From: Ruminococcus sp.
GTDB lineage: Bacteria; Bacillota; Clostridia; Oscillospirales; Ruminococcaceae
DNA length: 64,000 bases
Direction of reading: 5' to 3'
Assembly (NCBI GenBank): GCA_031262105.1
Contig: JAISIH010000083.1
Coordinates: forward strand, 3,219-67,218
In this document: piece after piece, positions 3,045-16,725 of the stretch
Layout of the letters: each line of letters begins with the position of its first letter
Numbering within the stretch: the first letter of the stretch is position 1
Made by a program: the position numbers and the translations under genes
The notes under the pieces: model-generated
Seen by the model: the letters and a program-made list of their open reading frames with translations, nothing else
Told to the model about the DNA's origin: nothing
Databases searched by the model: none

Positions 3045-3413
3045 ATGGCAAGAATCGCCGGTGTTGACCTTCCCAAGGCAAAGCGCATTGAGTACGGTCT
3101 AACTTATATCTATGGCATAGGCGTGAGTTCGTCACGGAAGATTTTAGCGGCTGCGGGAGTTTCGCCCGATACCCGCGTTAAGGACCTTTCCGAAGATGAA
3201 GTCGGCAAAATCAGAGCAGAGATTGACAAGGATTATACCGTTGAGGGCGACCTTAAACGTGAAGTCCAGCTCAATATCAAGAGGCTTGTTGAGATAGGCT
3301 GTTATCGCGGAATCCGCCACAGAAGGGGTCTCCCCGTTCGCGGACAACGCACAAAAACAAATGCACGTACCCGTAAAGGTCCGGCTAAGACTATCGCTAA
3401 CAAGAAGAAGTAA
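3045..3413 (+). CDS. rpsM: 30S ribosomal protein S13
   Basis: [10 protein letters not shown] start, an [25 protein letters not shown] segment near the C-terminus, and operon position. Confidence 0.95.
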
Positions 3414-5922: not shown

Positions 5923-5935
5923 TAGAAAATATAAC

Positions 5936-5976
5936 CATATACACGGTGTTTCTGTATCGGGAACATCGTGTATATG
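5936..5976 (+). terminator. Hairpin terminator after rplQ
   Basis: 15-bp stem (catatacacggtgtt / aacatcgtgtatatg, one G.U pair) with an 11-nt loop, 14 nt after the rplQ stop. Confidence 0.55.
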
Positions 5977-6183
5977 TATTATCTGTTGATAAATAATTAT
6001 GAAATTAAGTTCATTTATTAAACATTGTGTAAATTTTAAAGTTTGTATAACAATTTACTTGTATTTGTTCATATAATATGTTATAATTGATTAAACTAAT
6101 AAAATAAATTAAATGTTTTTTTTGTGTTGCCAAAATTGTAATTTTATAGTTCAAGGATTTGTAATGACGAAAAGAGGAAAAAC

Positions 6184-6369
6184 GTGTTAATCGAAAAGAA
6201 AAATTGCTTAAACGAGGAAGCTCGTAATTACAACCACAAACCTGTTGAAGTTACAACCGGTTTTAGTGAGCTTACTTTTATATATCCTGATGATGAAGAA
6301 ATTATTCCTGACGAGGAAAGATTTATATTTCCCATAGACAAGGTCTTCTCAAGCGGTTATCCTATTTAA
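6184..6369 (+). CDS. Hypothetical small acidic protein (61 aa) in the low-GC island
   Basis: GTG start preceded by AAGAGGAAAAA. A/T-rich codon usage like the following gene. I recognise no motif. Confidence 0.35.
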   Translation: MLIEKKNCLNEEARNYNHKPVEVTTGFSELTFIYPDDEEIIPDEERFIFPIDKVFSSGYPI

Positions 6370-6382
6370 AAAATCATACACC

Positions 6383-6423
6383 CAAACAACGGTTGAAGAA
6401 CAATGTTAGTCAACCGTTGTTTG
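6383..6423 (+). terminator. 14-bp perfect hairpin between the small ORF and the 797-aa gene (possible attenuator or terminator)
   Basis: caaacaacggttga / tcaaccgttgtttg with a 13-nt loop. There is no clean U-tract. Confidence 0.4.
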
Positions 6424-6449
6424 TATTACTATATTAAGGACAGTATCAA

Positions 6450-8843
6450 ATGCCGAATGATCCGATTGGATATAAATTGACCTTCTGTAAAAAGCTCTCA
6501 GCGCTTGATAACCCTGTACCCGGTGTGGCATTTGAATATCTAACATTGGCGCACTTCGATGGGATTTTTATAAATGAAATAAAGTGCGTTAGTGATTATA
6601 AAAAGACGTGTTCGGACATCCTACAAGATGGAATAAAGTGGGGCGACCTAACAGCCGACAAACAGAATAAGTTAAATTTTCTTGCGCATTGCGAAAAACA
6701 GGTCGTAAATATCATAACAGAAAACGTCAATAATGATGTGTTAAGTAATCACGATATGCCGATTATGGTGGTCACACTTTTAAATTTCAGTGATGAAAAC
6801 AATTGCAGAAGCCAAAAAATAAATAGTATAAAGAATGCTCTCCAGAATTATATCGGAAATTTAAGTGTCGATTTTGGGGTTTATATGCCGCTGTCTATAG
6901 AGGATTTAGCAATTGTTTTTAAATCCTATACTCTTGAAAGTATTTTAAAGCTTATTACTAATCTAAGAAATCACAAATGTTTTGCTGACGTTATGAATAT
7001 GTATTCCGTAATTTCTTTAGACACAAATTCTGATAAACCCGCTCAGATCGAGGAAATTAACACTTATATAAAGATTCAGGCGGTTCCCCCGACAAGTTTT
7101 CGCGAAATAGCAGATAATTTACCTTCGGTTACGCCGATTGGTGAAGAACGTAATTATAATGACACTAAAGTTGCGGTCGGAAAATATGATATGTATCATA
7201 GAATATCCATAAAAAACACAATGAACTATTATTTTAATTTATACAGAAATATTCTTGATACAAATTCATGCATTTCAAAAAAGTTAGGCGTGTTATCCAC
7301 AGAAACTATAGTAATTAAACCGCTTAACGAGAGCGGTGAAAAAAATCATTTTACCAACCAATTTGCATTTAGCGGAAATATCAATAAACAAAAAAGTTGG
7401 AATGAATGGTATAGACGATTCGAAGAATGTTGGAATAAAGAGTGGGACAAAGGTAATAAAAGTGAAACTAAGAAAAAATATAAAGAATGGTTCCCTACTC
7501 TTTATAAATTTTCTGGTATGCTTAGTGGTCGTGCTCATCGTATATCACACGCTGTTTCTTCTTATAAGTATTTCGAACCATTTTGGGAATTTATTTCTGA
7601 AATAACGAAATTTATTCCGGAATTTATAAAGAGTGAATCAAAAAGAGAAAACTATAATCGCAGCGTTCTAACTGTAAGTGATGAAATCAGATCATTGATT
7701 ACCGGAATTGACGATGTCTTTTCGACGTCTTTCCATGATTTTGAGCAATCGCAAAAAGATGGGTTATGCGTTCACTCTGCCGGAAAGCTTATGGTTGCAT
7801 ATCGGAATTTTGCTGAATTTTTAGGTAATCAATTATTATCTGTTATAGGTCACGACGGTAGACACATTTATTTTTCAATTGTTTCAGCAATAACAGAGAC
7901 CACAAAAATAAACAGATATGACATTAAAGAGAATAAAACGAATAATACATTCTTAACAATACATATGCCGTTTTCAAATATTTACGATTTTCGTGCGGCG
8001 ATTTTTAAGATTTGCCATGAAATTGGGCATTTAATATACGTCACTGATGCTGAAAAAAGCAGATTCAAGGATATATGTAATGAAGGATTAGAGATAGAGA
8101 GTATTAGATTCAGTAATCCCAAAATAGTACATCAACTTAATAAAATACTTGATGAATTTTACGAGGAATTCGCTGCTGATTACTATGCAATTAAAATATT
8201 AGGGCTTGATGTTCTTTATAGTGATCCAAAGCACGATAAAGATGCTGTTTTGAATCAAATTCAAGAAATATTCATGACTGAACTTAATGATAAACAACGA
8301 GCCGGCGTTAACCTTCGATTCCAAGGTATTCGTTTACTCTTACGCCTTCAACCAATGCTAATAAGGGACAAAAAACATGATTTAAACTTAGACAGTTTAA
8401 TAGCTTGGGCGTATCAACCATCTGATGTAATACAAGAACTACTTAATTCCGTAGCCGAAAATGTTATCCCGGTAATTGGGCAGGTAGGTAGCGCCTCTGT
8501 TATTGTTAAAGAAGCAGTAAAATATGCAACTGACGTTAAAAATGTAGAAGAGTTTATTTACCTCAATACGAATATTAGTGAAAAGATTTTTTCTCCGGCA
8601 GCTCTTTACATTTTAAGGCAAAATGAAGATGTAAAATTAATAAATGACATATATACGATCTTAAATAAAAATAAAAAAGAAAATTCAGAATTTCCTTTTC
8701 AAAATCAAATTAACTTTTTCAAAAGCTATAGGGAGCATTTCTTTGATTATAGAAGCGGGAGCTCTTCATATCGAGATGATGTTGTTCCATTTCGAGATTT
8801 TTTGTTAGCCTTTACCGAGCGCAGAAAATACATAGAACTATGA
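6450..8843 (+). CDS. Large (797 aa) hypothetical protein with an HExxH zinc-metallopeptidase-like module (ImmA/IrrE, M78-like), encoded on a low-GC island
   Basis: Long uninterrupted ORF in strongly A/T-rich DNA. HEIGH lies at nt 8016..8030, and EEFAADYYA at nt 8163..8189 about 49 aa later, resembling the HExxH...ExxANxFA signature. No signal peptide or TM segment is evident. Confidence 0.7.
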   Translation: MPNDPIGYKLTFCKKLSALDNPVPGVAFEYLTLAHFDGIFINEIKCVSDYKKTCSDILQDGIKWGDLTADKQNKLNFLAHCEKQVVNIITENVNNDVLSNHDMPIMVVTLLNFSDENNCRSQKINSIKNALQNYIGNLSVDFGVYMPLSIEDLAIVFKSYTLESILKLITNLRNHKCFADVMNMYSVISLDTNSDKPAQIEEINTYIKIQAVPPTSFREIADNLPSVTPIGEERNYNDTKVAVGKYDMYHRISIKNTMNYYFNLYRNILDTNSCISKKLGVLSTETIVIKPLNESGEKNHFTNQFAFSGNINKQKSWNEWYRRFEECWNKEWDKGNKSETKKKYKEWFPTLYKFSGMLSGRAHRISHAVSSYKYFEPFWEFISEITKFIPEFIKSESKRENYNRSVLTVSDEIRSLITGIDDVFSTSFHDFEQSQKDGLCVHSAGKLMVAYRNFAEFLGNQLLSVIGHDGRHIYFSIVSAITETTKINRYDIKENKTNNTFLTIHMPFSNIYDFRAAIFKICHEIGHLIYVTDAEKSRFKDICNEGLEIESIRFSNPKIVHQLNKILDEFYEEFAADYYAIKILGLDVLYSDPKHDKDAVLNQIQEIFMTELNDKQRAGVNLRFQGIRLLLRLQPMLIRDKKHDLNLDSLIAWAYQPSDVIQELLNSVAENVIPVIGQVGSASVIVKEAVKYATDVKNVEEFIYLNTNISEKIFSPAALYILRQNEDVKLINDIYTILNKNKKENSEFPFQNQINFFKSYREHFFDYRSGSSSYRDDVVPFRDFLLAFTERRKYIEL

Positions 8844-8846
8844 AAA

Positions 8847-8872
8847 AAGAGGCATGGTTAGATATGCCTCTT
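8847..8872. terminator. Bidirectional intrinsic terminator shared by the 797-aa gene (+) and the purH-like gene (-)
   Basis: aagaggcat / atgcctctt 9-bp stem, flanked by an A-run on the left and a T-run on the right. Confidence 0.7.
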
Positions 8873-8919
8873 TTGTTTTATTTTGTTGTTACCTTACTCG
8901 CGGTGTTCCACATGGAACA

Positions 8920-10113
8920 TTAATGATGAAATAATCTTATCCCCGTAAACGCCATAGCCATGTTATATTTGTTACAGGTTTCGATAACGTTGTCGTCGCG
9001 GATTGAGCCGCCGGGTTCTGCAATGTATTTCACGCCGGAGCGATAGGCGCGTTCGATGTTGTCGCCGAAGGGGAAGAACGCGTCGGAGCCGAGGGCGACG
9101 TCTGTGTTTGTTTTAAGCCATGCTTTTTTTGCTTCGCGTGTGAATTCTGCCGGCTTTACCTTGAAGATGTTCTGCCAAACGCCGTCGGCGAGGACTTCGT
9201 CGGAGTCGTCGGAGATGTAGACGTCGATTGCGTTGTCGCGGTCGGGGCGGCGGATATTGTCCGCAAACTGCAGCCCGAGGACTTCGGGGGACTGCCGCAG
9301 ATACCAGTTATCGGCTTTTTGCCCGGCGAGGCGGGTGCAGTGGATTCGAGACTGCTGACCGGCGCCGATTCCGATTGCCTGACCGTCTTTTACGTAGCAG
9401 ACGGAGTTCGACTGCGTGTATTTTAGGGTTATCAGCGAGATTATAAGATCCTCTAATTTGTCGGCGGGGATATTCTTGTTTTCGGTTACGATATTTTGGA
9501 GCAAATCGGCGTTGATTTTAAGTTCGTTTCTGCCCTGTTCAAAGGTTACGCCGAAGACATCTTTTGTTTCAATCGGCGCGGGAACATAGCTTTCGTCGAT
9601 TTTTACTATGCAATACGTGCCTTTGCGCTTGCTTTTTAGGATTTCGAGAGCCTTTTGGCTGTAGCCCGGGGCGATTATGCCATCCGAAACCTCGACCTGA
9701 ATTAGCTTTGCTGTCGATTCGTCGCACTCGTCCGAGAGGGCGATAAAGTCGCCGTAAGATGACATTCTGTCCGCGCCTCTTGCCCTTGCATATGCGCAAG
9801 CTAAGGGGCTTAGTTCCCCGTCACCTGTGAAATAAATCTTACGGAGCGTGTCTGACAGGGGTCTGCCGACCGCTGCGCCGGCGGGGGAGACGTGCTTGAA
9901 GCTTGTCGCGGCGGGTAAGCCTGTCGCCGCCTTAAGTTCGCGGACAAGCTGCCAGCCATTGAACGCGTCGAGCAGATTTATATAGCCGGGCTTGCCGCAG
10001 AGTACCTCTATGGGGAGGGGGGCGGTGTTTGCGGGGGTTGCGTTCGCGTTTGCGGTTTTGACGTAGACTGACGCGGGTTTCTGATTAGGGTTACAGCCGT
10101 ATTTTAGTTCCAT
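8920..10113 (-). CDS. purH: AICAR formyltransferase (PurH C-terminal-domain-only type)
   Basis: 397 aa. Ends with the canonical GSDAFFPFGDNIE...PGGSIRDDNVI...AMAFTGIRLFHH. It lacks the N-terminal MGS/IMP-cyclohydrolase domain. Confidence 0.85.
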   Translation of the reverse strand: MELKYGCNPNQKPASVYVKTANANATPANTAPLPIEVLCGKPGYINLLDAFNGWQLVRELKAATGLPAATSFKHVSPAGAAVGRPLSDTLRKIYFTGDGELSPLACAYARARGADRMSSYGDFIALSDECDESTAKLIQVEVSDGIIAPGYSQKALEILKSKRKGTYCIVKIDESYVPAPIETKDVFGVTFEQGRNELKINADLLQNIVTENKNIPADKLEDLIISLITLKYTQSNSVCYVKDGQAIGIGAGQQSRIHCTRLAGQKADNWYLRQSPEVLGLQFADNIRRPDRDNAIDVYISDDSDEVLADGVWQNIFKVKPAEFTREAKKAWLKTNTDVALGSDAFFPFGDNIERAYRSGVKYIAEPGGSIRDDNVIETCNKYNMAMAFTGIRLFHH

Positions 10114-10121
10114 TTTTGCAC

Positions 10122-10829
10122 CTACACATTTTTATTTACGATCTTGTCTTGGTATGTTCCTGTCGCAATGTCAATATACCTTACAAAAAGGGAGATTTTA
10201 TTCGCTTCGTTTAGGTTATCCCACAAGCCCTGTGTAAATTCGCCGATGTCGTCGGGGATAGAAATTGCCGTCGGTTCGCCGGAGAAAACCTCAGGCGGGT
10301 TTCCGTCGCACTTATATGTATGGATAAAATGCCCGGTTCCCGCTACTGCCGGCTTGTATGTAAATAAGAAGCGATTGCAGGATTCGGGGTTGCCGCTTGC
10401 AGATTTTAGGATTGAGAGGGCATAGTTAAAATTATTATTCGTTAGCCTTATAATCCCGGAAATTCGCGGGGTATAGATCGGGGGGTCGGGTTCAAATTCC
10501 CGGCATTGTAAGCTTTCTTCAAAGGTTTTTTGAGCGTCGAGCCCGTTATAGATTGTGTCGGTCTGGTCGCCGTTCGTGACTATGGTCTTGTTCCCCAAAA
10601 CGCGAACGGCGTTATAGATTACAAGGCTCGGGTCGGACATCTTCGACGGGTCGAAAGCCTCTGTGCGTATGCCGTCGGCGGTTTTTACGAAGATTCTGTT
10701 GCGGCTGTTTTCACTCCTACCCATGATGAAATAGGCGGTTACAGCGTGCTTGCCGTCAGGGGTTGCTCCTATAATTATACCACGCCCGGGATAGCTATTA
10801 TTTGCAAGTAATTCTTTTATATCCTTCAT
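10122..10829 (-). CDS. IMP cyclohydrolase, PurO-like (archaeal type)
   Basis: About 235 aa, immediately upstream of the formyltransferase-only purH. N-terminal YPGRGIIIG-type sequence. The start is set at MKDIKEL (10829), so it does not overlap peptide gene P1. Confidence 0.7.
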   Translation of the reverse strand: MKDIKELLANNSYPGRGIIIGATPDGKHAVTAYFIMGRSENSRNRIFVKTADGIRTEAFDPSKMSDPSLVIYNAVRVLGNKTIVTNGDQTDTIYNGLDAQKTFEESLQCREFEPDPPIYTPRISGIIRLTNNNFNYALSILKSASGNPESCNRFLFTYKPAVAGTGHFIHTYKCDGNPPEVFSGEPTAISIPDDIGEFTQGLWDNLNEANKISLFVRYIDIATGTYQDKIVNKNV

Positions 10830-10845
10830 TTTTACCTTCTTTAAT

Positions 10846-11145
10846 TTACCAAGCCGCTTGATTCTGGCAGAAGAGTTCCTTTGTTTCCTCATCGAACACA
10901 CTCTTCATGCAAAGGCGGCATAGGCGGTTTTTATTATTAATGTTTGCCGCGTCGAAGTATTCGCAGGTTTCTGCTTTTTCGTTCGGGACGAGTTTATATT
11001 TGGGACCGTTGCAAAAAAGCCCGCCGCCCGTAACCGCGAGGTTTTCAAGCTCTTCGTCCGAAAGGGTTATGTATTTATCCGCCTGTTCGTCTGTAATTTC
11101 TATGCCGCGTTCACGCGCTTTCGCGATTAGTTCATCCTTTTTCAT
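10846..11145 (-). CDS. Array member P1: long-leader double-glycine Cys-rich precursor peptide (99 aa)
   Basis: Leader MKKDELIAKARERGIEITDEQADKYITLSDEELENLAVTGG. The core has C, CEYF, CRLC and C, and ends QAAW. Own GGAGG RBS. Confidence 0.8.
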   Translation of the reverse strand: MKKDELIAKARERGIEITDEQADKYITLSDEELENLAVTGGGLFCNGPKYKLVPNEKAETCEYFDAANINNKNRLCRLCMKSVFDEETKELFCQNQAAW

Positions 11146-11166
11146 GACGATACCTCCATGTAAATT

Positions 11167-11523
11167 CTACCAAGCTTTTTTATTAGTACAGAAGAGTTCC
11201 CCTGTTTCCAGATCGCGCGAACTACTTTTGCAGGCGCGGCATACGCGGGTTTCATTAAAAATGCTTGCCGAGTCGAAGTATTCGCAGTTTTTTGCCCTTT
11301 CGTTCGTGACCGGCTTAGAAAAGGATTCGCCGCAAATGTCCGCGCCGCCGACGATGTTTTCGAGTTCTTCGTCCGAAATAGACGAGTGCTTTATAACTCT
11401 GCCGCCCGAAACGGCGAAGCCTTCAAGCTGTTCATCCGAAAGCACGGAAAATTTCTCCGCCTGTTCGTCTGTGAGAGTTATGCCGCGTTCCGCCGCTTTT
11501 TTTATAAGTTCTTCCTTTTTCAT
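11167..11523 (-). CDS. Array member P2: precursor with two consecutive double-glycine leader motifs (118 aa)
   Basis: MKKEELIKKAAERGITLTDEQAEKFSVLSDEQLEGFAVSGG, then RVIKHSSISDEELENIVGG, then a core with C, CEYF, CRAC and C, ending KKAW. The start is taken at ATG 11523; the track begins at 11538. Confidence 0.75.
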   Translation of the reverse strand: MKKEELIKKAAERGITLTDEQAEKFSVLSDEQLEGFAVSGGRVIKHSSISDEELENIVGGADICGESFSKPVTNERAKNCEYFDSASIFNETRVCRACKSSSRDLETGELFCTNKKAW

Positions 11524-11544
11524 GATGCCGCCTTTCAAAAAGTT

Positions 11545-11862
11545 TTAGTCCGGGTAAGCTTCCTTGCTCTGACAGTAGCAGTATGAGTATTCAAGCCCGC
11601 GAACGGTGCGTTCTTTGGTATAGCAGTGCAGACAATAATTGCATTTGACCGGGTCGCTGTCGGTCGAGTCCGCTCTCCTTACGAAGTATGCGCAGGTTTT
11701 TGCTTCATTTGGGGCAACTCTTTTTCCGTCCTCGCCGCAGCCGCCCGCTACCGCGAGGTTTTCAAGCTCATCGTCCGAAAGGGTTATGTATTTATCCGCC
11801 TGTGTCTCGTCAATCGCTATGCCGCGATCACGCGCCTTTTTAATAAGGTCGTCTTTTTTCAT
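11545..11862 (-). CDS. Array member P3 (105 aa)
   Basis: Leader MKKDDLIKKARDRGIAIDETQADKYITLSDDELENLAVAGG. Core: C...CAYF...CNYCLHC...CYC. Confidence 0.8.
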   Translation of the reverse strand: MKKDDLIKKARDRGIAIDETQADKYITLSDDELENLAVAGGCGEDGKRVAPNEAKTCAYFVRRADSTDSDPVKCNYCLHCYTKERTVRGLEYSYCYCQSKEAYPD

Positions 11863-11880
11863 GATAAAAACCTCCTGTGC

Positions 11881-12198
11881 TTACATATAATTAGAATATA
11901 CGCCTATTTTGCAGTAACAATAGCTCATAGGATATGCGTAAACCCTTTCACTATGTTTGCACGAAAGACAGGTACCATCGTTCTCGTCGTCTTTTTTGCT
12001 GTAACTGGAACAGCGTTTTCCCTTGTTTACATCCTCAACTCTTACGCTGCCTTTCGACGGTTGGCATCGATCTATGCCGCCCGCAACCGCTAAGTTTTCA
12101 AGTTCTTCGTCGGAAAGGGTTATGTATTTGTCCGCCTGTGTCTCGTCGATTTCTATGCCGCGTTCACGCGCCATTTTGATAAGGTCTTCTTTTTTCAT
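11881..12198 (-). CDS. Array member P4 (105 aa)
   Basis: Leader MKKEDLIKMARERGIEIDETQADKYITLSDEELENLAVAGG. Core: C...CSSY...CLSC...CYC. Confidence 0.8.
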   Translation of the reverse strand: MKKEDLIKMARERGIEIDETQADKYITLSDEELENLAVAGGIDRCQPSKGSVRVEDVNKGKRCSSYSKKDDENDGTCLSCKHSERVYAYPMSYCYCKIGVYSNYM

Positions 12199-12214
12199 CT
12201 GTTTGTCCTCCTTC

Positions 12215-12532
12215 TTATTGCCACGCTTCCGCGCAGAGGCAGTAATTTTGTACTATGGGGATATCAAGACTCGGCATCAGGGTTATTGTATCAAAGTGAG
12301 TGCAATAGGTGCATTTTAGCCCTTCATTCGACGGCTTCGCGCTGACAAATTTAGTACAGGTTTGCGCGTAGTTAATATTGTCGAGTTTGTGTCTGTATTT
12401 TTCGTTGCAACCCCCCGCGACCGCAAGGTTTTCAAGCTCGTCATCCGAGAGGGCTATGTATTTATCCGCCTGTGTTTCGTCGATCGCTATGCCGCGTTCA
12501 TGTGCCTTCTTGATAAGGTCTTCTTTTTTCAT
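12215..12532 (-). CDS. Array member P5 (105 aa)
   Basis: Leader MKKEDLIKKAHERGIAIDETQADKYIALSDDELENLAVAGG. Core: C...CTKF...CTYC...CLCAEAWQ. Confidence 0.8.
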   Translation of the reverse strand: MKKEDLIKKAHERGIAIDETQADKYIALSDDELENLAVAGGCNEKYRHKLDNINYAQTCTKFVSAKPSNEGLKCTYCTHFDTITLMPSLDIPIVQNYCLCAEAWQ

Positions 12533-12556
12533 GAAAAATCCTCCTTTATTAATAGC

Positions 12557-12835
12557 TTAAAAAGTTCTTAACTGCGGGTCATGCTCCCAGCCTTTTTCTG
12601 CGCAGGTATGCACCCCGGACACATCTTTAATGTTCGGGCAATTTGTGCAGGTTGAAGTCTTCCAAAACTTCGCTTCGGTTATGCCTTGCGAACACTTTTC
12701 AAGGCAATAATCAGGACCTCCGCCGGCGATGTTTTCAAGCTCTTCGTCCGAGAGGTTTAGGTATTTCTCTGCCTCTGTCTCAGTCAGGGTTATTCCGCGA
12801 GCGGCGGCTTTTTTTATCAGGTCTTCTTTCGTCAT
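12557..12835 (-). CDS. Array member P6 (92 aa)
   Basis: Leader MTKEDLIKKAAARGITLTETEAEKYLNLSDEELENIAGGG. Core: CLEKC...CTNC...C. Confidence 0.8.
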   Translation of the reverse strand: MTKEDLIKKAAARGITLTETEAEKYLNLSDEELENIAGGGPDYCLEKCSQGITEAKFWKTSTCTNCPNIKDVSGVHTCAEKGWEHDPQLRTF

Positions 12836-12850
12836 GATTTCCCTCCGCGC

Positions 12851-13072
12851 TTATACATTTTTTGTACAATGATAGGTAGTGGCTTTGCCGAAACAACCTG
12901 CGGCTTCTACGTAAATGTAGGTGCAGTTATCGCACAGACGTTCGCTGGTCCCCGGCTTCGGCTCGAAGTATTTGCAGTTCTCCGCGATGTCGAATTTAAC
13001 TACAACCCTGTTTGCCCCCGCAGATATGTTTTCAAGTTCTTCATCGGAAAGGTTAATGTTTTCTTTTTTCAT
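12851..13072 (-). CDS. Array member P7: truncated leader (73 aa)
   Basis: MKKENINLSDEELENISAGA lacks the N-terminal helix and has Ala-Gly-Ala (ISAGA) instead of GG at the predicted site. Core: CKYF...CDNC...C...C. The start is set at 13072 to avoid overlap with P8. Confidence 0.7.
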   Translation of the reverse strand: MKKENINLSDEELENISAGANRVVVKFDIAENCKYFEPKPGTSERLCDNCTYIYVEAAGCFGKATTYHCTKNV

Positions 13073-13085
13073 AGTCAAAACCTCA

Positions 13086-13385
13086 CTAATTCCAAGCTTC
13101 TTCAAGGGTACACCAAAGGCTTGAGAGTGTTTCGGAGTCTATCCTTGCGTGGGAGCAATTGCCGCAAATTTGGACAGATCTCTTCGGATCGAAGACACTG
13201 TAGTAACGGCAAGTAAGTGCCTTGTTCCCGTCCGTTATTTCTTTTTTGAAACCGCAGAAGCCTCCGCCCGCTATGTCGAGGTTTTCGAGTTCCTCATCGG
13301 AGAGGTTAACGTACTTCTCCGCCTGTTCCTCGGTTAAGGCTACGCCCTGTTCTGCGGCTTTTTTTATAAGGTCGGACTTTTTCAT
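13086..13385 (-). CDS. Array member P8 (99 aa)
   Basis: Leader MKKSDLIKKAAEQGVALTEEQAEKYVNLSDEELENLDIAGGG. Core: C...CRYY...CGNC...C, ending EEAWN. Confidence 0.8.
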   Translation of the reverse strand: MKKSDLIKKAAEQGVALTEEQAEKYVNLSDEELENLDIAGGGFCGFKKEITDGNKALTCRYYSVFDPKRSVQICGNCSHARIDSETLSSLWCTLEEAWN

Positions 13386-13421
13386 AGCAAACCTCCTTTT
13401 AGTTAACCGGTGCTGTCCGGG

Positions 13422-13715
13422 TTATGCCCTGTAAGTTTTTATGACTGTCATCATCTGATCGCAATGCACAACGGTTGATATCGGTCTGCCGAGGCTATCG
13501 CAGGCACCATAATAGGGAACCTTTATCATCTTTTCCCCGCAGATTTCGCAAATAATATCCATATAAGGTTCAGTGCAAATATCATCCACAAGTCCGCCGC
13601 CGCCCACAATGTTCTCAAGCTCTTCTTCCGAAAGGTTTATGTACTTCTCCGCCTGTTCGTCGGTGAGGGTAATTCCGCGCTCACGCGCCTTTTTTATAAG
13701 GTCTTCTTTTTTCAT
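13422..13715 (-). CDS. Array member P9 (97 aa)
   Basis: Leader MKKEDLIKKARERGITLTDEQAEKYINLSEEELENIVGGGG. Core: C...CEIC...C...C. Confidence 0.8.
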   Translation of the reverse strand: MKKEDLIKKARERGITLTDEQAEKYINLSEEELENIVGGGGLVDDICTEPYMDIICEICGEKMIKVPYYGACDSLGRPISTVVHCDQMMTVIKTYRA

Positions 13716-13729
13716 GGTTTACCCTCCTG

Positions 13730-13957
13730 TTAATTCCACGCTTCTGCGCAGGTGCAATAAAGGCTGCTCGAGGTTCGTTTTACCTTTTTACAGCGGTCGC
13801 ACTGCTTATAATTTCTTTCTATGTCGGTTTCGTAGTAACTGCATTTTTCCGCTTCATAGCCCATGACATACTTATTAAATTTAACCGCCCCGCCCGAAAC
13901 GGTTAAGTTTTCAAGCTCCTCTTCCGATACAGCCGGTTTTTGTGCTTCTTTTTCCAT
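13730..13957 (-). CDS. Array member P10: second leader class (75 aa)
   Basis: Leader MEKEAQKPAVSEEELENLTVSGG. Core: CSYY...CDRC...CTCAEAWN. Confidence 0.75.
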   Translation of the reverse strand: MEKEAQKPAVSEEELENLTVSGGAVKFNKYVMGYEAEKCSYYETDIERNYKQCDRCKKVKRTSSSLYCTCAEAWN

Positions 13958-13978
13958 AAGTTTACCTCCGATAAAATA

Positions 13979-14272
13979 TTACACATTCCGTGCGAATAAA
14001 ACCATTCTGTTAACTTCGGTATTTGAGCAGAAAATCTGCCCGGTTTCATAATTACCGTAGTAGTCGCACGACCAGCAGTTTTGCTTCACGCCCGGCGTCG
14101 GATTTGCCCCGTGCCACTTGCCGCATATCATTCCGGCAGTATCGGCGTTGTTTATCAAGACAAACGAATCGTCGTACACCATCTCTCCGAATGCAGGAGA
14201 GCTCCCTGCGCCGCCGGCAACTGCGTCAAGCTCTTCTTCCGATACAGCCGGCTTTTGCACTTCTTTTTCCAT
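13979..14272 (-). CDS. Array member P11: second leader class (97 aa)
   Basis: Leader MEKEVQKPAVSEEELDAVAGG. Core: C...CWSC...C. The start is set at ATG 14272 (GGGAGGG RBS), 20 nt after the purN stop. The track ORF extends into purN. Confidence 0.7.
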   Translation of the reverse strand: MEKEVQKPAVSEEELDAVAGGAGSSPAFGEMVYDDSFVLINNADTAGMICGKWHGANPTPGVKQNCWSCDYYGNYETGQIFCSNTEVNRMVLFARNV

Positions 14273-14292
14273 GGTTTTACCCTCCCGTATTT

Positions 14293-14871
14293 CTATAACT
14301 TCGCACAAAGTTTTTCTACCGCTTCCGGCAGGATGACCCATTCTGCCTCTTCCATGACGCGTCTCTGTAACGTCTCGGGGGTGTCATTGTCCCTTACCTC
14401 GACCGCCTTTTGTGCCAGAATCGGTCCGCCGTCACATTCGGGCGTTACAATATGCACTGTCGCGCCGGTTATCTTTACGCCGCGTTTTAAGGCTTCTTCA
14501 TGCACCTTTAAGCCGTAATATCCGACGCCGCAAAAACTCGGGATTAACGCCGGGTGGACATTAACTATCCGCCCCTTGAAAACCGCGCAAAAGCTGTCGT
14601 CGAGGACTGTCATAAACCCCGCGAGGACTATTACGTCGATATCCTGCTCCAAAAAAAGCTGTATAAGTTCTTCGGAATAACTTTTGCTGTCGGGGAAATT
14701 CTTGCGCGGGAGGGTTAACGTCTTAATCCCGGCGTTCTCGGCGCGGGTTAAGGCAAAAGCCCCCTCCTTGCTCGAAACAACAAGAACAATCTCGCCGCTT
14801 TTTAGCTTATAGTCAATGAGTGCCTGTAAATTCGTTCCCCCGCCCGAGACCAAGACCGCTATTCTTTTCAT
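14293..14871 (-). CDS. purN: Phosphoribosylglycinamide formyltransferase
   Basis: MKRIAVLVSGGGTNLQALID start, NVHPALIP motif, position after purM. Confidence 0.9.
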   Translation of the reverse strand: MKRIAVLVSGGGTNLQALIDYKLKSGEIVLVVSSKEGAFALTRAENAGIKTLTLPRKNFPDSKSYSEELIQLFLEQDIDVIVLAGFMTVLDDSFCAVFKGRIVNVHPALIPSFCGVGYYGLKVHEEALKRGVKITGATVHIVTPECDGGPILAQKAVEVRDNDTPETLQRRVMEEAEWVILPEAVEKLCAKL

Positions 14872-14875
14872 AATC

Positions 14876-15916
14876 CTAAAGCCCGTTCACAACGATTTTT
14901 TCATCGCCGGTCGAGATTTCGCCCAAGACATAGCTTTCCTCGCCCGCCGCATTAAGGGTTGCAATAGCCCGCTCTGCATCTTCCGGCGCGGTAACAATTA
15001 CCATTCCCACGCCCATATTGAACGTGTTATACATATCGCGGATGGGTATCTTGCCCGTTTCCATAATCAGGTCGAAAATCGGGAGCGTTTTAACGTTCGC
15101 AATATCAATATTCGCGCAAAGCCCGTCTTTTATCGCACGGGGAATGTTCTCGAAAAAGCCGCCGCCGGTTATATTGGCGATGCCTTTAACGTTAACCTTC
15201 GAGATAAGCTCTAAAATCGGTTTAACGTAAATTTTCGTCGGGACCAAAAGCGCGTCGCCCAAGTTCTGCCCGATTTCGGAATAGTGGCGCGAGATGTTCT
15301 GGTGGTTAAGCGCGAAGACCTTCCGTACCAGCGAAAAGCCGTTTGAATGAAGCCCGGAAGACCGCACGGCAATTAAAACGTCGCCGGCTTTTTGCCCCTC
15401 GGTCGAGATTATCTTTTTCTTATCGACAATCCCGACAGCGAAACCGGCGATGTCGTATTCGTCCTCGGGATAAAAATCCGGCATCTCCGCCGTCTCCCCT
15501 CCGACGAGGGCGCATCCCGCCTGAACACAGCCGTCCGCAACGCCCTTCACAATCTGTTCAATCCGCAGCGGAATATTCTTCCCGCAGGCGATATAATCGA
15601 GGAAGAAAAGCGGTTTCGCTCCCGCGCAGATTATGTCATTAACACACATGGCAACCGCGTCAATCCCGATTGTGTTATGGCGGTCGGTTAAGAACGCCGC
15701 CTTGAGTTTTGTCCCCACGCCGTCGGTCCCCGAAACGAGGACAGGTTCTTCCATCCCGGCGAAATCCGGCGCGAAAAGCCCGCCGAAGCCGCCGATGTCC
15801 GTCAAAACCCCGGGAACGCGCGTTCTTGCGACGTGTTTTTTTATAAGTTCGGTCGATTCATACCCGGCGGTAATGTCCACGCCGGCTTCTTTATAACTAT
15901 CTGAAAAGCTGTACAT
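14876..15916 (-). CDS. purM: Phosphoribosylformylglycinamidine cyclo-ligase (AIR synthetase)
   Basis: YKEAGVDI, GIGGFGGLF-type and DGVGTK motifs; 346 aa. Confidence 0.95.
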   Translation of the reverse strand: MYSFSDSYKEAGVDITAGYESTELIKKHVARTRVPGVLTDIGGFGGLFAPDFAGMEEPVLVSGTDGVGTKLKAAFLTDRHNTIGIDAVAMCVNDIICAGAKPLFFLDYIACGKNIPLRIEQIVKGVADGCVQAGCALVGGETAEMPDFYPEDEYDIAGFAVGIVDKKKIISTEGQKAGDVLIAVRSSGLHSNGFSLVRKVFALNHQNISRHYSEIGQNLGDALLVPTKIYVKPILELISKVNVKGIANITGGGFFENIPRAIKDGLCANIDIANVKTLPIFDLIMETGKIPIRDMYNTFNMGVGMVIVTAPEDAERAIATLNAAGEESYVLGEISTGDEKIVVNGL

Positions 15917-15967
15917 TAAAATTATTTCCTTTATATGGTATTTTTGTTACGAAACTTTGTTAAATAT

Positions 15968-15996
15968 ATTATACGATATTAAATTTCATTTGTCAA
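15968..15996 (-). promoter_or_regulatory. Consensus sigma-A-type promoter for the purM operon
   Basis: On the minus strand: TTGACA (15996..15991), a 17-nt spacer, then TATAAT (15973..15968). It lies about 50 nt upstream of the purM ATG. Confidence 0.6.
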
Positions 15997-16068
15997 GGGG
16001 TTTTATGAAGTTTGAAGAAATCTTCTGCTTAAAAATTTTTTATTCGACAAAATTCGCCATATTTCCCC

Positions 16069-16097
16069 TTGACGGTAAGTTTTTTGGGGCGTATAAT
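16069..16097 (+). promoter_or_regulatory. Sigma-A-type promoter for the stefin-like gene
   Basis: TTGACG, a 17-nt spacer, then TATAAT. It lies about 45 nt upstream of ATG 16141. Confidence 0.55.
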
Positions 16098-16140
16098 TAT
16101 TTCAGCGAGACTAAATTAAACAATTTCGGAGGTAAAAATC

Positions 16141-16725
16141 ATGGGAACTACTATGCTTGCGGGCGGTTACAAAGTTGACATTGCTGTCGGAGCATTACCG
16201 CAGAAGGTTGCGACATACGGAATGGAAGTCTTAAACGATCTCGTCGGCGCGAAATATGAGCCGGTTGCTTATCTCGGGAGTCAGGTTGTTAACGGCATTA
16301 ACCATGCGATCCTTACCGTTCAGACGCTTGTGACCGCCTCACCTGTGAAATCGCTTCGCGTTGTTGTGCTTAACGAAAAGCCCTCTTCCGAAACAAAATC
16401 CGATTTCACAATCGTAACCATCGGCTCGCCGCTCCTTACATACGCTTCTCCCGGCATGACCGGCGGATATGCAGAGCCGGAAGATTTCGCGAAAACCGCC
16501 CCCGAAGCGGCTGCTCTTTGGAGCAAGTGCCGTCAGCCGATCGGCAAAACCTACGACACCAAGTGCGTTTTAGGCACACAGGTTGTTGCCGGGACAAATT
16601 ATGCTATCCTCGCCGAATCCAAGGTTGTTGCGCCCGGCGCGGTTGCCGAAGCTTCAATCCTCTACCTTTGGTCTAAACTCGACGGGACTGTTGAACTTAA
16701 TGATATTGCGGACATTGATTTTTAG
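16141..16725 (+). CDS. Tandem two-domain stefin/cystatin-like protein (putative cysteine-protease inhibitor), no signal peptide
   Basis: Two internal repeats, each with an N-terminal GGY and a QxVxG loop. These are QVVNG (nt 16282..16296) and QVVAGTNYAIL (nt 16579..), which is near-identical to the stefin QVVAGTNY signature. Confidence 0.6.
   Translation: MGTTMLAGGYKVDIAVGALPQKVATYGMEVLNDLVGAKYEPVAYLGSQVVNGINHAILTVQTLVTASPVKSLRVVVLNEKPSSETKSDFTIVTIGSPLLTYASPGMTGGYAEPEDFAKTAPEAAALWSKCRQPIGKTYDTKCVLGTQVVAGTNYAILAESKVVAPGAVAEASILYLWSKLDGTVELNDIADIDF

Follow-up and report, generated by a model that had tools for sequence, protein, structure and literature searches.

What does it mean for a bacterium to carry a tandem array of small-peptide genes among the enzyme genes of its purine operon, and must the one be transcribed with the other? 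The question is raised by a 64,000-nt stretch of DNA (the window, by which we mean this whole stretch: positions 3,219 to 67,218 of contig JAISIH010000083.1, assembly GCA_031262105.1) that belongs to the metagenome-assembled genome (MAG) LBM59 of an uncultured termite-gut Ruminococcus. On its minus strand, a promoter is followed by purM, purN, 11 paralogous peptide genes, a purO-type gene, a purH that encodes the 5-aminoimidazole-4-carboxamide ribonucleotide (AICAR) transformylase only, and a hairpin terminator. The reading that best joins the observations, to which we assign a probability of about 0.62, is that the array is an old insertion forming one transcript with the purine operon, and that its peptides are matured and exported in trans.

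The peptide array and the operon around it

The four enzyme genes, all on the minus strand, were identified by matches above the Pfam gathering scores: purM (aminoimidazole ribonucleotide synthase, 14876..15916) by PF00586 and PF02769, purN (glycinamide ribonucleotide formyltransferase, 14293..14871) by PF00551 at 156 bits, the gene for the PurO-type inosine monophosphate (IMP) cyclohydrolase (10122..10829) by PF07826 at 219 bits, and the purH-like gene (8920..10113) by PF01808, with the AICAR transformylase domain only, aligned over profile positions 78-311. PurN is 100% identical to a protein (P0066) that its source names phosphoribosylglycinamide formyltransferase of a MAG of Ruminococcus sp., and PurO is 79-90% identical to its orthologs on contigs L001, L081, L092, L088 and L089 of related genomes. 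With purM, purN, a cyclohydrolase and a transformylase on one strand between a promoter and a terminator, the layout is that of a firmicute purine operon.

The 11 peptide genes, P11 to P1 in the order in which they are read, are intact open reading frames (ORFs) that run from 14272 to 10846 with gaps of 13-36 nt. The array begins 20 nt after the purN stop codon and ends 16 nt before purO. A GGAGG-like ribosome-binding site precedes 10 of the genes, P2 having a weak AAGG/GGCGG-type site, and the pur genes have weaker sites than the peptide genes. When the consensus leader of the peptides was used in a tblastn search, all matches within the window fell in the array (eight at E 1e-15 to 1e-19, two weaker), and the paralogy is thus far beyond chance.

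The operon is bounded by strong signals. Upstream of purM lies a sigma-70-type promoter, TTGACA-17-TATAAT (15968..15996, minus strand), which agrees with the consensus at 12/12 positions; the identical perfect promoter stands upstream of purM on L001 and L081 too, and hence in three genomes including that of the window. About 25 nt on the 3' side of the -10 element are also conserved among these three; a comparison of this block by eye with the PurBox consensus (AWWWCCGAACWWT) gave no convincing match. At the other end, a bidirectional intrinsic terminator (8845..8874; stem of 11-12 bp, T-runs on both strands) separates purH from a convergent ORF of 797 codons, and the minus-strand RNA forms an 11-bp stem followed by UUUUUU, with a folding energy of -23 kcal/mol and a z-score of -3.7.

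Between these boundaries the array is quiet. Neither a terminator-like site nor a promoter match of at least 10/12 was found on the sense strand inside the window array; the few terminator-like sites of the L001 array have weak, 5-bp stems; and across the arrays of the window, L001 and L081 we found no conserved internal signal and no strong sense-strand promoter or terminator. Control by a riboswitch or attenuator was considered and rejected, as an Rfam search over 8800..16200 returned no riboswitch (purine, ZTP) or other element at the gathering score or even at E <= 1. The initial annotation had described this gene order with its 20- and 16-nt gaps, its promoter and its bidirectional terminator, and every one of these elements is correctly placed; its statement that the array holds no internal promoter or terminator is borne out for strong signals in all three arrays, with weak sites remaining.

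From this layout, we suggest that the cell probably cannot produce the enzymes for the final two steps of IMP synthesis without transcribing 11 peptide genes as well. A single transcript of about 7.1 kb would run from the promoter at 15996..15968 to the terminator at 8845..8874, and any transcript reaching purO and purH would first cross all 11 peptide genes. The short gaps and GGAGG-type sites would keep ribosomes on the RNA, so that no polarity would arise, and the supply of peptide precursors would thereby be coupled to the expression of the purine operon.

Within purO itself, about 50 nt into the gene (10774..10782, minus strand), a perfect extended -10 element (TGGTATAAT) overlies the codons for R-G-I-I. 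It is probably a coding coincidence, since the scan flagged no equivalent in L001 or L081.

The peptides and their maturation

What do the 11 genes encode? Eight of the peptides share a 41-residue leader, MKKEDLIKKAxERGIxLxExQAEKYIxLSDEELENLxxxGG: P9 (13422..13715), P8 (13086..13385), P6 (12557..12835), P5 (12215..12532), P4 (11881..12198), P3 (11545..11862), P2 (11167..11523) and P1 (10846..11145), all encoded, like the other three, on the minus strand. P2 carries a duplicated double-glycine motif, LSDEQLEGFAVSGG and then ISDEELENIVGG, and P9 a zinc-ribbon-like, CxxC-containing core. The remaining three retain only the last ~20 residues of the leader: P11 (13979..14272; leader MEKEVQKPAVSEEELDAVAGG before a Cys-containing core, ribosome-binding site GGGAGGG), P10 (13730..13957) and P7 (12851..13072; leader MKKENINLSDEELENISAG). 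P10 and P11 have the start MEKE[VA]QKPAVSEEEL in common, and short-leader members occur in L081 as well; such peptides might bypass the modifying enzyme discussed below during export.

In all of them a Gly-Gly cleavage motif closes the conserved region (LSDEELENxxxxGG), and sequence identity collapses immediately after it. The cores, 50-75 residues long, are hypervariable, and their alignments reveal a scaffold of the form C…C(Y/F)(Y/F)…CxxC…(Y/F/W)C, often ending in …EAW. The curated Nif11-like leader model TIGR03798 (cut-off 32.3 bits) is not reached: P6 comes closest of all the peptides at 26.1 bits, the others score 15-18 bits, as the weak match of P9 does, or not at all, and the alignment covers only positions 28-68 of 68, the C-terminal part of the leader model. 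Several double-glycine bacteriocin leader models of NCBIfam are likewise matched weakly and below their cut-offs, among them TIGR01847 (bacteriocin_sig), with 15.5 bits for P9 and 14.6 for P2 against a cut-off of 15.7. On these features, the peptides are most likely exported, cysteine-rich, secreted bacteriocin-like products. The initial annotation had already called them secreted, which agrees with their GG leaders and with the presence of paralogues beside an ABC exporter that contains a C39 peptidase.

The family is narrowly distributed. Among 5.8 billion proteins, a word-indexed profile search recovered 65 members. Their sources are three MAGs at NCBI that bear the name 'Ruminococcus sp.' (locus-tag prefixes LBM59, LBL80 and LBL98) and JGI-only contigs, and every family contig that was traced leads to JGI sample 3300042599 or run SRR14710920. 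The label Hm464 of the bin stands for Hodotermes mossambicus, a lower termite (PMC10684969). When 1.84 billion representatives were searched in full with HMMER, 55 proteins came out at E <= 1e-10, and after them a tail of about 170 more distant, longer proteins; the tail members that we read combine a full-length leader of Nif11 type with the same Cys scaffold, so that the window family is a compact branch of a wider group, which as far as we can tell has not been characterised previously. A metagenome scan with the peptide profile confirmed nothing, the pattern being too generic. One lone family peptide (L086, 10001..10303) lies among efp, ddl and argS, distant from any array or maturase; a cvpA gene (PF02674, colicin V production) about 7 kb upstream of it is probably a coincidence.

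Where, then, would the peptides be processed? A Pfam scan of the large ORFs of the window found no C39 peptidase, ABC exporter or radical S-adenosylmethionine (radical-SAM) gene. In sister genomes, paralogues of the array peptides cluster with NHLM-type ABC export genes. The clearest case is L083 (LBL80), where three family peptides are accompanied by a TIGR03797-like ABC protein (695 bits, just under the cut-off of 709), a TIGR03796 C39 peptidase/ABC exporter of the NHLP family (880.8 bits against 853.3), a short fragment similar to an HlyD-type secretion protein and a radical-SAM enzyme of 507 residues. An orthologous locus, L091, is present in the LBL98 genome, and a JGI contig, L084, combines two related peptides with a radical-SAM gene of 514 codons. 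The peptides beside the radical-SAM genes at all three loci carry the same leader and Cys scaffold as those of the array. Close homologs of the enzyme number only seven, all on contigs typical of sample 3300042599. One ortholog (P0189, MDR0904203.1; 70% identical) is encoded on a contig of 28,340 nt together with LBM59_06230 (MDR0904212.1), and the window's own genome thus has the enzyme on another contig.

The nearest solved relative of the radical-SAM enzyme is the sactipeptide maturase SkfB (E 6.7e-13), and there are weak matches to the StsB, AlbA and PapB models. A metagenome scan with P0189 gave only relatives of at most 30% full-length identity, so the collection scanned evidently does not include this sample. 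These distant relatives (25-30% identity) adjoin arrays of Nif11-leader peptides in 14/80 metagenome loci. On L100, L111, L124, L103 and L101 such enzymes are flanked by tandem full-length Nif11-leader peptides whose cores are built of repeated CxC…GGGG units, which seem to be a different, larger family served by the same enzyme clade.

We suggest that a separate locus would supply, in trans, a radical-SAM/SPASM enzyme of about 506 residues with an N-terminal extension, together with an NHLP-type pair of ABC exporter proteins whose C39 peptidase domain would cut after GG. The array in the pur operon would then be a remote precursor library.

This proposal has clear counterparts among known systems. 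Prochlorosins of Prochlorococcus and Synechococcus derive from diverse procA precursors that share one Nif11-type leader and are modified by a single enzyme, ProcM. The window system is alike in its many precursors with a common leader and, presumably, one enzyme encoded elsewhere; it differs in having a radical-SAM/SPASM maturase rather than a LanM, and a tight tandem array inside an essential operon rather than genes scattered singly or in islands. Haft et al. (2010; PMC2887384), who mention the expansion of N11P families in Prochlorococcus, described the N11P/NHLP precursors as large paralogous families with GG cleavage and NHLM exporters, the precursors being encoded at a distance from the genes for their modification and export. 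The termite-gut loci match this pattern: here too a Nif11-like Gly-Gly leader precedes a hypervariable core, each genome has a large paralogous family, many precursors are distant from the processing genes, and paralogues adjoin a TIGR03796-type exporter. The differences are that the window leader is only ~40 residues long and matches the last ~40 of the 68 model positions below the cut-off; that the cores are long (50-75 residues) with a fixed four-Cys scaffold, not short and of low complexity; and that Clostridia of termite guts, instead of cyanobacteria or proteobacteria, are the hosts, with the main array inside a purine operon.

Sactipeptides and ranthipeptides (SkfA/SkfB, subtilosin/AlbA) are similar in their Cys-rich precursors and in a radical-SAM enzyme with an N-terminal extension. 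In contrast to them, the enzyme here reaches no curated maturase model and has low identity to characterised enzymes, while the cores have roughly double the length of known sactipeptides, and crosslinks are only candidates. Because the curated leader cut-off is missed and the enzyme falls in no named family, we file the system neither under TIGR03798 nor under a maturase family. By analogy, it may work like an N11P- or prochlorosin-type library served in trans.

As to the operon context, the nearest precedent known to us is cvpA. CvpA is a membrane protein needed for colicin V production and not a bacteriocin precursor; Fath, Mahanty and Kolter are said to have reported in 1989 that this colicin V production protein is encoded in a purine operon of E. 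coli, cvpA-purF. The likeness is limited to a bacteriocin-related function that is encoded in a purine operon and expressed along with it, and no array is present there. A search of the literature for pur operons that contain precursor peptides or bacteriocins found none.

Origin, age and neighbourhood of the array

The junction between purN and purO in other genomes indicates how the arrangement may have arisen. The window (LBM59) reads purM-purN-[11 peptide genes]-purO-purH; L001 (LBL80, PurO 83% identical) reads purF-purM-purN-[14]-purO-purH; and in L081 (LBL98) purE-purC-purF is followed by a gene for a protein of about 190 residues on the other strand and then by purM-purN-[20]-purO-purH. 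Two further contigs hold partial arrays, L087 with purECF-purM-purN and peptide genes until the contig ends, and L092 with at least seven peptide genes before purO-purH-rplQ-rpoA. These could be the two ends of an array in a single genome. L092 encodes a PurO and a PurH distinct from the proteins of the window, L001 and L081, and the array is thus present in at least four genomes. In two sister genomes it is absent. L088 (PurN 71%) has toxin-antitoxin pairs between purECF and purM and a purN that is separated from purO-purH by 2 nt, and L089 (PurN 69%) has remnants at the first of these positions and 38 nt at the second.

The initial annotation had raised the question of whether relatives carry purN directly beside purO. 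They do so in L088 and L089, with the array occupying that very site in at least four genomes, and we therefore regard the array as a lineage-specific insertion. L089 adjoins the same secY…rpsD-rpoA-rplQ block as the window operon, and identity matrices of PurM, PurN, PurO and PurH mostly separate an array-bearing from an array-less clade. These sequence comparisons are most simply read as one insertion event, between purN and purO, in the ancestor from which the array-bearing clade descends. A scan of a genome collection for PurO returned 79 loci, mostly from Lachnospiraceae (~70% identity), in which purO-purH stands alone with no purN or purM within 8 kb; they are thus uninformative on this junction, and L001 alone was useful. 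The arrangement is not an assembly artefact, because both junctions recur on independent contigs of other genomes and a fragment of the array appears in a separate Logan assembly. The sequence of events would have begun with an ancestral purM-purN-purO-purH order, into which the ancestor of a small termite-gut clade would have gained a tandem array between purN and purO; duplication, loss and recombination would then have changed its membership to the 11, 14 and 20 genes of the three genomes.

Divergence between the genomes shows that this insertion is old. The flanking pur genes differ by synonymous divergences (dS) of 0.9-2.4, with a ratio of nonsynonymous to synonymous divergence (dN/dS) of 0.05-0.11, and for orthologous peptide pairs this ratio is 0.14-0.33, in leader and core alike; by the latter values, the peptide genes are functional and were retained while the genomes diverged over a long time. 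With dS at the flanks of about 1 or more, the insertion is old, and it is maintained by purifying selection. The repertoire itself turns over quickly, since only 4/11 window peptides, namely P11, P8, P6 and more weakly P10, have clear orthologs elsewhere, the others reaching at most 36% core identity. P8 pairs with gene 18 of L081 (76% core identity, dN/dS 0.14), P6 with gene 19 (61%, dN/dS 0.19), and P10 is ortholog-like to gene 12 (42%). P11 and gene 3 of L001 (3734..4081) share 82% identity in the core at a dS of 0.25, compared with 1.2-2.4 for the pur genes of the same genomes. This low value may reflect recent exchange or gene conversion between co-resident species, an explanation that is tentative as few sites are involved.

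Base composition is in keeping with a long residence. The array has a GC content of 0.468, and of 0.526 at third codon positions (GC3), against 0.511 and 0.598 for host genes, and its relative synonymous codon usage (RSCU) correlates with that of host genes at 0.81, compared with 0.83 for the pur genes, its codon usage having come to resemble that of the host. The array had been judged not obviously recent from its host-like composition, and this judgement stands, though its GC content is slightly lower.

The operon has acquired other genes as well. At the purF-purM junction, L088 carries two MNT/HEPN (NTP_transf_2 + HepT-like) toxin-antitoxin pairs (7563..8878) and L089 their remnants (8593..8903), so that the pur operon of this lineage has taken up accessory genes at two junctions. 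Divergently upstream of the purM promoter, the window (16141..16725, plus strand) and L081 (3892..4464, minus strand) encode the protein of about 190 residues, which has no family match. The window operon is rearranged relative to L081, L087, L088 and L089, as purE, purC and purF do not lie immediately upstream of this gene.

Beyond the terminator, between rplQ and purH, a block of about 3 kb (5923..8843) has a low GC content of 0.33 (GC3 0.28). It includes the convergent 797-codon ORF (6450..8843, plus strand), whose product contains an HExxH-like motif (CHEIGH) and whose codon usage is uncorrelated with that of host genes (RSCU correlation -0.08); Pfam and PADLOC searches with this protein and with the 194-residue product of another ORF neighbouring the operon gave no match. 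The corresponding site is empty in L092 and holds an MCP gene and a relA/spoT-like gene in L088 and L089. The block looks like a recent foreign insertion. The window otherwise consists of core chromosomal genes, including secY to rpoA, a GH10 enzyme, penicillin-binding proteins, secA and flagellar genes.

Alternative readings and implications

Several observations count against the joint reading of an old, co-transcribed array served in trans. We infer co-transcription from the absence of recognisable signals, and that the purM promoter responds to purines is a supposition. The window array does contain a weak sense-strand site, TTTGCA-16-TATTAT (13579..13552, 9/12), and an extended -10 element, TGgTAGAAT (11172..11164), 19 nt upstream of the P1 start codon, and L001 has a 10/12 promoter match at 7765..7793, 184 nt upstream of purO. 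A real weak internal promoter would look the same as chance sites. On the side of maturation, only the radical-SAM enzyme is placed in the window's own genome, by accession range, the exporter being known from sister genomes. The enzyme has a clear radical-SAM domain (PF04055, 74.6 bits), its SPASM match reaches 18.8 bits against a Pfam threshold of 21.5, and it nears no cut-off among the curated NCBIfam maturase equivalogs. A search of the PDB with the predicted fold of P1 gave no match (best E = 2). Finally, all array-bearing and sister genomes are MAGs or contigs of a single Hodotermes mossambicus gut metagenome sample.

We considered whether the purN-purO junction might simply be a permissive insertion site, at which the array, or purO and purH, or both, use weak or non-sigma-70 promoters of their own, so that peptide and purine expression are uncoupled and the location is a neutral accident. 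The weak matches in the window and L001, together with several 9/12 matches in L081 (one at 11982..12011), would suit this explanation, as would the cargo at the purF-purM junction (the toxin-antitoxin pairs of L088, the ~190-residue protein gene of L081 and the window), which indicates that the operon tolerates insertions. However, the 14 promoter-like candidates in the window are close to the number expected by chance from shuffled sequence (9.6 +/- 2.9), none is conserved between genomes, and no site approaches the 12/12 promoter that three genomes keep upstream of purM. The intra-array gaps of 13-36 nt are too small for regulatory regions, and four genomes that are diverged at a dS of about 1 or more retain the array at this site. 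We consider independent transcription unlikely, while giving it real weight. Unlikely, too, is the idea that the peptides are exported unmodified, as disulfide-bonded or metal-binding bacteriocins of class-II type, with the C39 exporter alone acting in trans and the radical-SAM enzyme reserved for the peptides beside it or for another substrate. The length of the cores is in its favour, and so is the AlphaFold (AF2) model of P1, in which core residues 50-99 are compact, with a predicted local distance difference test score (pLDDT) of 82-87, and the leader has low confidence. Some cores have a classic zinc-ribbon pattern (CxxC…CxxC), some relatives match PF09723, and P7, P10 and P11 are missing the N-terminal stretch of the leader, which one would expect to be bound by the recognition element for peptides that are synthesised ribosomally and modified post-translationally (RiPPs). 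Against it, the leader and Cys scaffold of the array are shared by the peptides that lie next to the radical-SAM genes on L083, L084 and L091, and relatives of the enzyme repeatedly adjoin Nif11-leader peptides.

That the small ORFs are decaying remnants, the product of a chimeric assembly, or intracellular proteins of purine metabolism is very improbable. All the data are metagenome assemblies from one sample, and a few members of the L081 array are truncated to 52-69 residues. Yet all 11/11 window ORFs are intact, 10/11 of them with a strong GGAGG-type site, and the dN/dS values of 0.14-0.33 do not fit decay; both junctions are found on at least four independent contigs, and the array fragment comes from a second assembler. 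The combination of a conserved GG leader with hypervariable cores suits a product that is exported and does not suit a metabolic cofactor.

If the array is indeed an old, co-transcribed insertion, is its position an advantage in itself? A mutation that silenced the promoter would also cause purine auxotrophy, and peptide output would rise when purines are scarce. We regard an adaptive position of this kind as doubtful; were it true, the arrangement would hard-wire a link between nutrient competition and bacteriocin warfare and act as a pleiotropic safeguard against the loss of a costly secreted product.

Remote libraries of RiPP precursors are known, and their expression is largely unexplored. 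Here such a library is built into a core biosynthetic operon; as its peptide repertoire turned over, the arrangement itself was retained in no fewer than four diverged genomes. Should co-transcription be confirmed, this would be a clear natural case of a primary-metabolism promoter driving the precursors of secondary metabolites, with a bearing on how bacteriocin production is coupled to nutrients. Genome-mining pipelines that seek precursors near biosynthetic genes would miss arrays of this type. The array and its relatives define a small, previously undescribed peptide and radical-SAM system of termite-gut Clostridia.

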